64,000 nucleotides of DNA from Promethearchaeota archaeon (lineage in GTDB: Archaea > Asgardarchaeota > Lokiarchaeia > Sigyniarchaeales > SOKP01), in NCBI GenBank assembly GCA_048937405.1, contig JBHLNF010000009.1, forward strand, positions 139,096-203,095, given 5' to 3'. A program made the translations under genes and the position numbers. Shown here piece by piece: positions 34,628 through 34,732 of the stretch. Under the pieces are notes generated by a model. That model had not been told where the DNA came from and made no database searches. It worked only from the letters and a program-made list of their open reading frames with translations. Within the stretch, counting starts at the first letter, position 1. Each line of letters begins with the position of its first letter.

Positions 34628-34732
34628 TTATTTTTTAGCTGGTGCTTTCTTTTTAGCTGGTGCTTTCTTTTTAGCTGGTGCCTTTTTTTTAGCTGGTGCT
34701 TTCTTTTTAGCTGGAGCTTTCTTTTTTGCCAT
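34628..34732 (-). CDS. 34-aa Lys/Ala/Pro microprotein MA(KKKAPA)5KK, histone-H1-tail-like
   Basis: ATG 34732 to TAA 34628; GAGGAG RBS at 34750-34745; variation among the 18-bp repeats is synonymous in this frame. Confidence 0.8.
   Translation of the reverse strand: MAKKKAPAKKKAPAKKKAPAKKKAPAKKKAPAKK

Follow-up and report, generated by a model that had tools for sequence, protein, structure and literature searches.

The C-terminal domain of eukaryotic linker histone H1 is a disordered, basic stretch of about 100 residues, rich in lysine, alanine and proline (K/A/P), that neutralises charge and compacts DNA; the H1 of kinetoplastids is 'tail-only'. Very small basic peptides that condense DNA are also known, such as ScvA of Coxiella and protein J of microviruses, which are rich in Arg, Gln or Gly and linked either to a developmental stage or to the packaging of virions. 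H1-like K/A/P repeat proteins are found in bacteria as well, namely Hc2 of Chlamydia (PMC2848022) and AlgP of Pseudomonas, which associates with polyphosphate granules and spaces them (PMC9239181). A K/A/P-repeat C-terminal tail of mycobacterial HupB is cited in PMC10919886.

Asgard archaea are studied for their chromatin, as the point from which eukaryotic chromatin started. Tailed histones of the HLoB/HMpB type are encoded in these archaea (10.64898/2026.07.02.735847; Henneman et al. 2018, PMC6136690), and the tailed histones, together with the enzymes that write and erase their marks, were newly described (10.64898/2026.07.02.735847). The tail of HLoB.2 from a cultured Loki archaeon starts with AKKKTPAKK; it is methylated in vivo and is acetylated and deacetylated in vitro by Asgard enzymes (10.64898/2026.07.02.735847). 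No description of a stand-alone tail-like microprotein in Asgard archaea was found in the searched literature outside subscription journals. A candidate for such a microprotein lies in a 64,000-nt stretch of a Promethearchaeota archaeon contig (hereafter the window); this phylum belongs to Promethearchaeati, the kingdom of the Asgard archaea. A tail-only gene that is selected, conserved and unannotated adds a possible component of chromatin, or of nucleic-acid binding more broadly, that standard methods have missed.

The 34-codon frame within a tandem repeat

The coding sequence (34628..34732, minus strand) was read directly from the DNA and is present in the ORF list. From an ATG at 34732-34730 to a TAA stop at 34630-34628, it encodes Met-Ala, five KKKAPA units and Lys-Lys, which make up the full 34-codon product, MA(KKKAPA)5KK. 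The codon unit AAA AAG AAA GCN CCA GCT occurs five times and is followed by AAA AAA TAA. At the DNA level, the body of the ORF is an 18-bp tandem repeat of 5.3 copies (34632..34726), with the top TRF score in the window (169, with 93% matches). Three differences were found between the units, GCT/GCA in unit 1 and AAA-AAG vs AAG-AAA in unit 3. All three are silent in the KKKAPA frame and change residues in both other frames.

A rival ORF of 67 aa with a TTG start (34549..34752, minus strand) reads KRKHQL through the repeat; on the plus strand, the ORF list contains no ORF of at least 20 aa that crosses it. The micro-ORF occupies a gap of 692 nt; on one side of it a flavodoxin/4Fe-4S gene (33545..34336) ends at 34336, and on the other a 106-aa ORF (35029..35349) starts at 35029. 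The micro-ORF is single-copy in the 4.47-Mb assembly. The original prediction had described KRKHQL as the listed frame, a hidden ATG-to-TAA frame of 34 aa with 17 Lys, unit differences that are all silent in that frame and an intergenic space of its own; direct reading and the ORF list agree with it on each of these points.

The 34-aa frame is almost certainly a real protein-coding gene. A search across Asgard genomes, of the kind suggested with the original prediction, found the motif KKKAPAKKK with at most one mismatch in 76 of 399 genomes of the phylum, against only 2 for a reversed control pattern, which indicates an occurrence beyond chance. A whole-ORF pattern was also used, consisting of the start, a free gap of 54-84 bases and Lys-Lys-stop, without imposing the frame; its control version gave 0 matches in the 399 genomes. 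With three further genomes added to the matches of this pattern, K/A/P-type orthologues were found in 44 genomes, and the match lengths were multiples of three in 44/44, although the pattern allowed any gap length. We read 31 orthologues in full and aligned 30. The orthologues are 28-37 aa long and run from MAKK to KK or KKK, with KR and RK in two variants.

Among eleven 37-aa orthologues, the variable columns were distributed as 4/6/29 over codon positions 1/2/3, and the median pairwise dN and dS were 0.048 and 1.09 (dN/dS ~0.04). Variable codon columns amounted to 7 of 38 (stop included) in the KKKAPA frame vs 29-30 of 37 in the other two. Compared with its two nearest same-length orthologues (L025 and L031), the gene of the window has a dN of 0.013 at a dS of 0.7-1.0. 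In the relatives, the DNA units differ from each other at silent sites and the peptide repeat is kept, which argues for selection on the peptide rather than on the DNA repeat. Frame-breaking indels or non-synonymous drift had been expected to speak against a gene; no such indels were found, and the drift was overwhelmingly synonymous. With 44 in-frame orthologues and purifying selection in this frame, the claim of a stand-alone coding micro-gene missed in the listed frame is well borne out. We rejected the 67-aa KRKHQL frame, which has variable residues in 26-29 of 34-37 columns and a 3' extension that falls in non-conserved DNA.

Three shortened orthologues (L078, L080 and L072) carry a TAA in place of a lysine codon, and the old C-terminus (GPAKK, ASSKK or PAKK, then a stop) is found in-frame just past the new TAA. 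Judging from these nonsense-shortened orthologues, the length of the peptide is evidently flexible. AAG makes up 5 of the 17 lysine codons of the micro-gene vs 24 of 146 in neighbouring genes, and the longest A run in any orthologue is at most 10; this codon usage and these short A runs would fit an avoidance of poly(A) slippage.

Several other features of the window should be mentioned. The 106-aa ORF that borders the gap belongs to a region of tandem 269-aa paralogues (35029-37229, minus strand; paralogues at 35397..36206 and 36420..37229). It stands after the first paralogue, and an apparent truncated 21-aa copy (36304..36369) stands after the second, an arrangement that points to tandem duplication with decay of one small gene. 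At 37741-37929 (minus strand) lies a 62-aa basic ORF in which eight residues precede a run of six lysines. It has a GAGGTG element of its own and, past the stop, an oligo-T run; it differs from the K/A/P type, and its sequence is unrelated to the microprotein. A long purine-rich AAAGA-type repeat at 63846-64000, with periods of 6/15/42 and TRF scores of at most 151, extends past the end of the window and may be part of a K/E-rich coding region.

Putative expression signals

The micro-gene is a monocistronic, stand-alone unit of 34 codons, with what appear, from sequence conservation, to be its own promoter, leader, Shine-Dalgarno-like element and terminator. A promoter/terminator scan of the bacterial type was uninformative for an archaeon. 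The putative archaeal promoter (34806..34821, minus strand) consists of a BRE-like TAGAAA followed by the TATA box TTTAAATA at 34813-34806, 81 nt before the ATG. This assignment follows from motif conservation, as TTTAWAWN was found in 30 of the 31 orthologues at a median position of -81, usually with TAGAAA just ahead of it. Placed by the usual archaeal distance from TATA box to start, transcription would begin near 34785, which predicts an A/U-rich 5' leader of about 50 nt (34733..34785, minus strand). A structured leader was considered and rejected, as RNAalifold found 0 conserved pairs in 21 orthologous leaders; Rfam and tRNA scans gave no match.

The Shine-Dalgarno-like element GAGGAGACG (34742..34750, minus strand) has its GGAG core at 34748-34745, 12 nt before the ATG, and AGGAGACG or a near variant is found at -17, with fixed spacing, in 29 of the 31 orthologues. 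The GAGGAG that had been called a ribosome-binding site is present (34750-34745) and conserved. Its 12-nt distance to the ATG is invariant yet longer than usual for such a site, and the element presumably acts as a Shine-Dalgarno sequence.

An oligo-T run (T8; 34573..34580, minus strand), 47 nt after the stop, is a likely archaeal transcription terminator. T runs of at least 6 (median length 9) occur 14-57 nt past the stop in 31/31 orthologues, and the background is a T run of at least 7 in 5% of random 60-nt windows. The downstream neighbours vary between genomes and are often on the opposite strand, which argues for a monocistronic unit and not a leader peptide. A leader peptide or attenuator was rejected for this reason and because the terminator lies past the stop.

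These observations bear on the alternative that the frame encodes no functional protein and is an open, slippage-prone A-rich microsatellite, a small non-coding RNA or a regulatory leader peptide. Such an origin would agree with low-complexity DNA in an AT-rich genome (local GC ~0.18-0.29), with a repeat copy number that differs among relatives and with the absence of the exact product from protein collections. We nevertheless consider it very improbable, given the three-base periodicity and the dN/dS of ~0.04 at a dS of ~1, the lengths that all stay in frame, the silent divergence of units whose peptide is kept, the changing and often antisense downstream genes with a terminator past the stop, and the lack of a conserved RNA structure or an Rfam match.

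Distribution and relation to histone tails and H1-like proteins

Pattern searches, whose counts are lower bounds, detected the micro-gene only in the window's own Asgard (Promethearchaeota) family. It is present in about 28 of the 54 genomes of the window's genus, in 14 of 42 of a second genus, and in one genome each of two further genera; the 265 genomes of other families in the phylum gave two pattern matches, both of them unrelated frames. A viral origin is unsupported, with no Asgard-type copy among the first 119 viral-contig matches listed. Within the genus, partial microsynteny was observed, as the micro-gene is often located 250-360 nt upstream of a 127-129-aa gene that matches no known family. 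The syntenic site was also read in 8 genomes without the micro-gene; over the 2 kb on the upstream side of this neighbour, it holds no K-rich frame, no start codon preceded by AGGAGACG and no promoter that matches. These empty sites show that the micro-gene is accessory, with repeated gain or loss. Its accessory status makes a core chromatin role unlikely, and no chromatin gene was found as a conserved neighbour. With an occurrence in a single family and in about half of the genus, it is not a linker histone general to Asgard archaea.

The peptide has a mass of 3.6 kDa, a pI of 11.2 and a net charge of +16.5. No residues other than M, A, K and P occur in it (K 50%, A 32%, P 15%), and the prolines are spaced every six residues. 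AF2, run on the 30-sequence alignment, predicted no secondary structure (pTM 0.11, mean pLDDT 66), as expected for an intrinsically disordered polycation with no fold. Arg is absent from all 31 fully read orthologues, and only two variants have one R, close to the C-terminus; with zero Arg in the window's own peptide, the term protamine-like does not apply.

A Pfam scan at E-values up to 10 gave only a sub-threshold match to DUF1388 (E 0.12), and no NCBIfam family was matched. A profile search of 1.84 billion representative proteins returned 6 weak matches, all to K/A/P tracts inside longer proteins. Gene finders pass over the micro-gene, and by exact look-up the window's peptide is absent from 15 billion proteins and 153 billion gene positions, where such short products are possibly omitted, in line with the suggestion that the gene falls below gene-calling cutoffs. 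Seven Asgard orthologues and two bacterial look-alikes were likewise absent from these collections, which may omit short products. Unnamed clusters of 30-38-aa look-alikes were found in the ESM Atlas; in the cluster at rank 30, HC2 is assigned to 17% of the members, which we treat as a lead only.

The genome encodes six histone-fold genes, all matching PF00808, to which the micro-ORF has no match. A tailed histone of the same genome (L089:1495-1737, minus strand; PF00808) starts with MAKKKAPAKAAKKK, and its first nine residues, MAKKKAPAK, are identical to those of the microprotein. Histones of related genomes start with MAKKKAPAKKK, as does the micro-ORF, and the (M)AKKK-x-PAKK start of HLoB-type tails is thus present in it. 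The nearest sequence match of the peptide is therefore to the N-terminal tails of the Asgard archaea's own tailed histones, and not to a linker histone as had been thought. At the DNA level, 26 of the first 27 coding bases agree between the micro-gene and the histone gene, as codon bias alone predicts; the two genes are not alike in the upstream 110 nt, nor in promoter, leader or Shine-Dalgarno element. Convergence between low-complexity sequences may account for the resemblance of the micro-gene to the histone tail.

The microprotein shares with the Asgard tailed histones the same opening sequence and a lysine-rich, disordered character, and each is encoded by a monocistronic gene whose TATA box lies about 80 nt upstream. 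Unlike these histones, it has no histone fold and cannot enter a nucleosome-like particle, and its gene is accessory, whereas nearly all genomes of the genus have the tailed histone (45 of 54, with the micro-gene present or absent). We rejected the idea of a split histone, in which the micro-gene replaces a lost tail, because the tailed histone was detected at similar rates on both sides: of 28 genomes with the micro-gene 24 have it, and of 26 genomes lacking the micro-gene 21 do. KKKAPA-type units are attached to three further proteins in other Asgard families, to Alba as an N-terminal tail, to aIF2-gamma as an N-terminal extension and to RNA polymerase subunit D, which is Rpb3-like and has a 4Fe-4S domain, as a C-terminal tail; the loci of these three proteins are L006:1465-1860 (plus strand), L015:1447-2352 (minus strand), L016, L008:235-1611 (minus strand) and L012. 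The presence of these units on all three proteins suggests a general nucleic-acid-affinity module in the phylum.

The comparison with H1 gave a mixed result. A K/A/P-rich, disordered and strongly basic tail, as in H1/H5, is present, a resemblance in kind that is no evidence of homology. The H1/H5 winged-helix domain (PF00538) and the Hc2 family (PF07382, HC2) gave no match in Pfam at E-values up to 10, nor was Hc2 matched in NCBIfam. As the defining domains and profiles were looked for and did not match, the microprotein is, by sequence, neither a linker histone nor a member of the bacterial H1-like families. The description of an H1-tail-like peptide holds for the K/A/P composition and the charge of +16.5; homology to H1, Hc2 or any other family does not.

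Like the H1 C-terminal domain and kinetoplastid H1, the microprotein combines a K/A/P composition with disorder and a high positive charge. Unlike H1, it has 34 aa instead of about 100, and it lacks both the winged helix and S/TPKK phosphorylation motifs. With Hc2, AlgP and the HupB tail it has in common short lysine/alanine/proline units, whose number varies by slippage, and, probably, the binding of polyanions; those proteins are, however, 5 to 10 times longer or joined to a folded domain, and the microprotein is archaeal. ScvA and protein J are similar in being stand-alone peptides of about 30-40 aa whose sole evident property is a high positive charge, but their sequences are unrelated to it.

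Proposed binding of nucleic acids and other lysine-rich frames

The best overall explanation, with a probability of roughly 0.5, is that a real micro-gene encodes a free, disordered polycation that binds nucleic acid, probably chromatin. We infer its transcription and translation, a preference for DNA over other polyanions and any effect on chromatin. It is likely that the peptide binds a polyanion. Any polyanion suits a polycation, so DNA is not singled out by the sequence, and we rate chromatin as the specific target at somewhat less than an even chance. In the proposed mechanism, the peptide would bind nucleic acid electrostatically, with little or no sequence specificity, so that the phosphate charge of DNA, bare or wrapped around histones, would be neutralised. 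It would thus be a diffusible 'histone tail in trans', acting like the K/A/P-rich C-terminal tail of H1 or like bacterial H1-like proteins. A more specific version, which we hold to be rather doubtful, is that the peptide serves as a tail in trans on hypernucleosome DNA and is methylated, acetylated and deacetylated by the enzymes of the HLoB tail, as a competitor or a tunable compaction factor. If this version is true, the archaeal relatives of eukaryotes would have, in the peptide, a primitive, fold-less analogue of linker histones, and at the same time a living example of a free module whose fusion could yield the tails of histones, Alba, RNA polymerase subunit D and aIF2-gamma.

The KKKAPA tails on aIF2-gamma and RNA polymerase subunit D also imply that the module is not DNA-specific, and the peptide might instead be an RNA- or ribosome-associated polycation that binds rRNA, tRNA or mRNA, either as a genetically encoded substitute for polyamines or as a tiny protein associated with ribosomes. 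The ribosomal proteins eL41 and bTHX, which are very small and basic, offer a comparison, and the strong-looking promoter and the unstructured A/U-rich leader fit an abundant product. We find this unlikely but not remote: ribosomal components are not accessory, whereas about half of the genus has the micro-gene; no genes for ribosomal proteins or translation are among its neighbours; and the sequence nearest to it is a histone tail. With its charge and disorder, the peptide would suit any polyanion, and a binder of polyphosphate granules, in the manner of AlgP, or a charge-driven condensate scaffold was considered too. The argument here is by analogy with AlgP alone, no polyphosphate genes were found in the neighbourhood, and this alternative appears quite improbable.

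An exported polycationic peptide with antimicrobial or cell-surface action, for which polylysine is a model, is barely plausible: only the high positive charge speaks for it, the peptide has no signal sequence and zero hydrophobic residues, and no transporter or immunity gene is linked to the micro-gene.

Two practical consequences can be stated. Every second residue of the peptide is a lysine, so tryptic proteomics would destroy it, and lysine-rich micro-ORFs in AT-rich genomes are not to be dismissed as repeats.

Similar frames were also seen in bacteria. Free-standing frames of 27-44 aa that start with MAKK and consist of K and A almost throughout, along with P, T or V, were found in Bacteroidota/Verrucomicrobiota (L093, L096, L125, L134, L142, L151, L159 and L166), in Bdellovibrionota (L102, L112, L117, L123, L130, L139, L156 and L165) and in Planctomycetota (L106, L129, L133 and L158). 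These bacterial frames may form a wider, overlooked class of polycationic micro-ORFs. In viral contigs, 27-30-aa frames rich in K/A/M/G were detected in loci of 4-7 kb (L295, L308, L324, L297, L257 and L293); our guess is that they are small DNA-packaging proteins of the microvirus protein J type.
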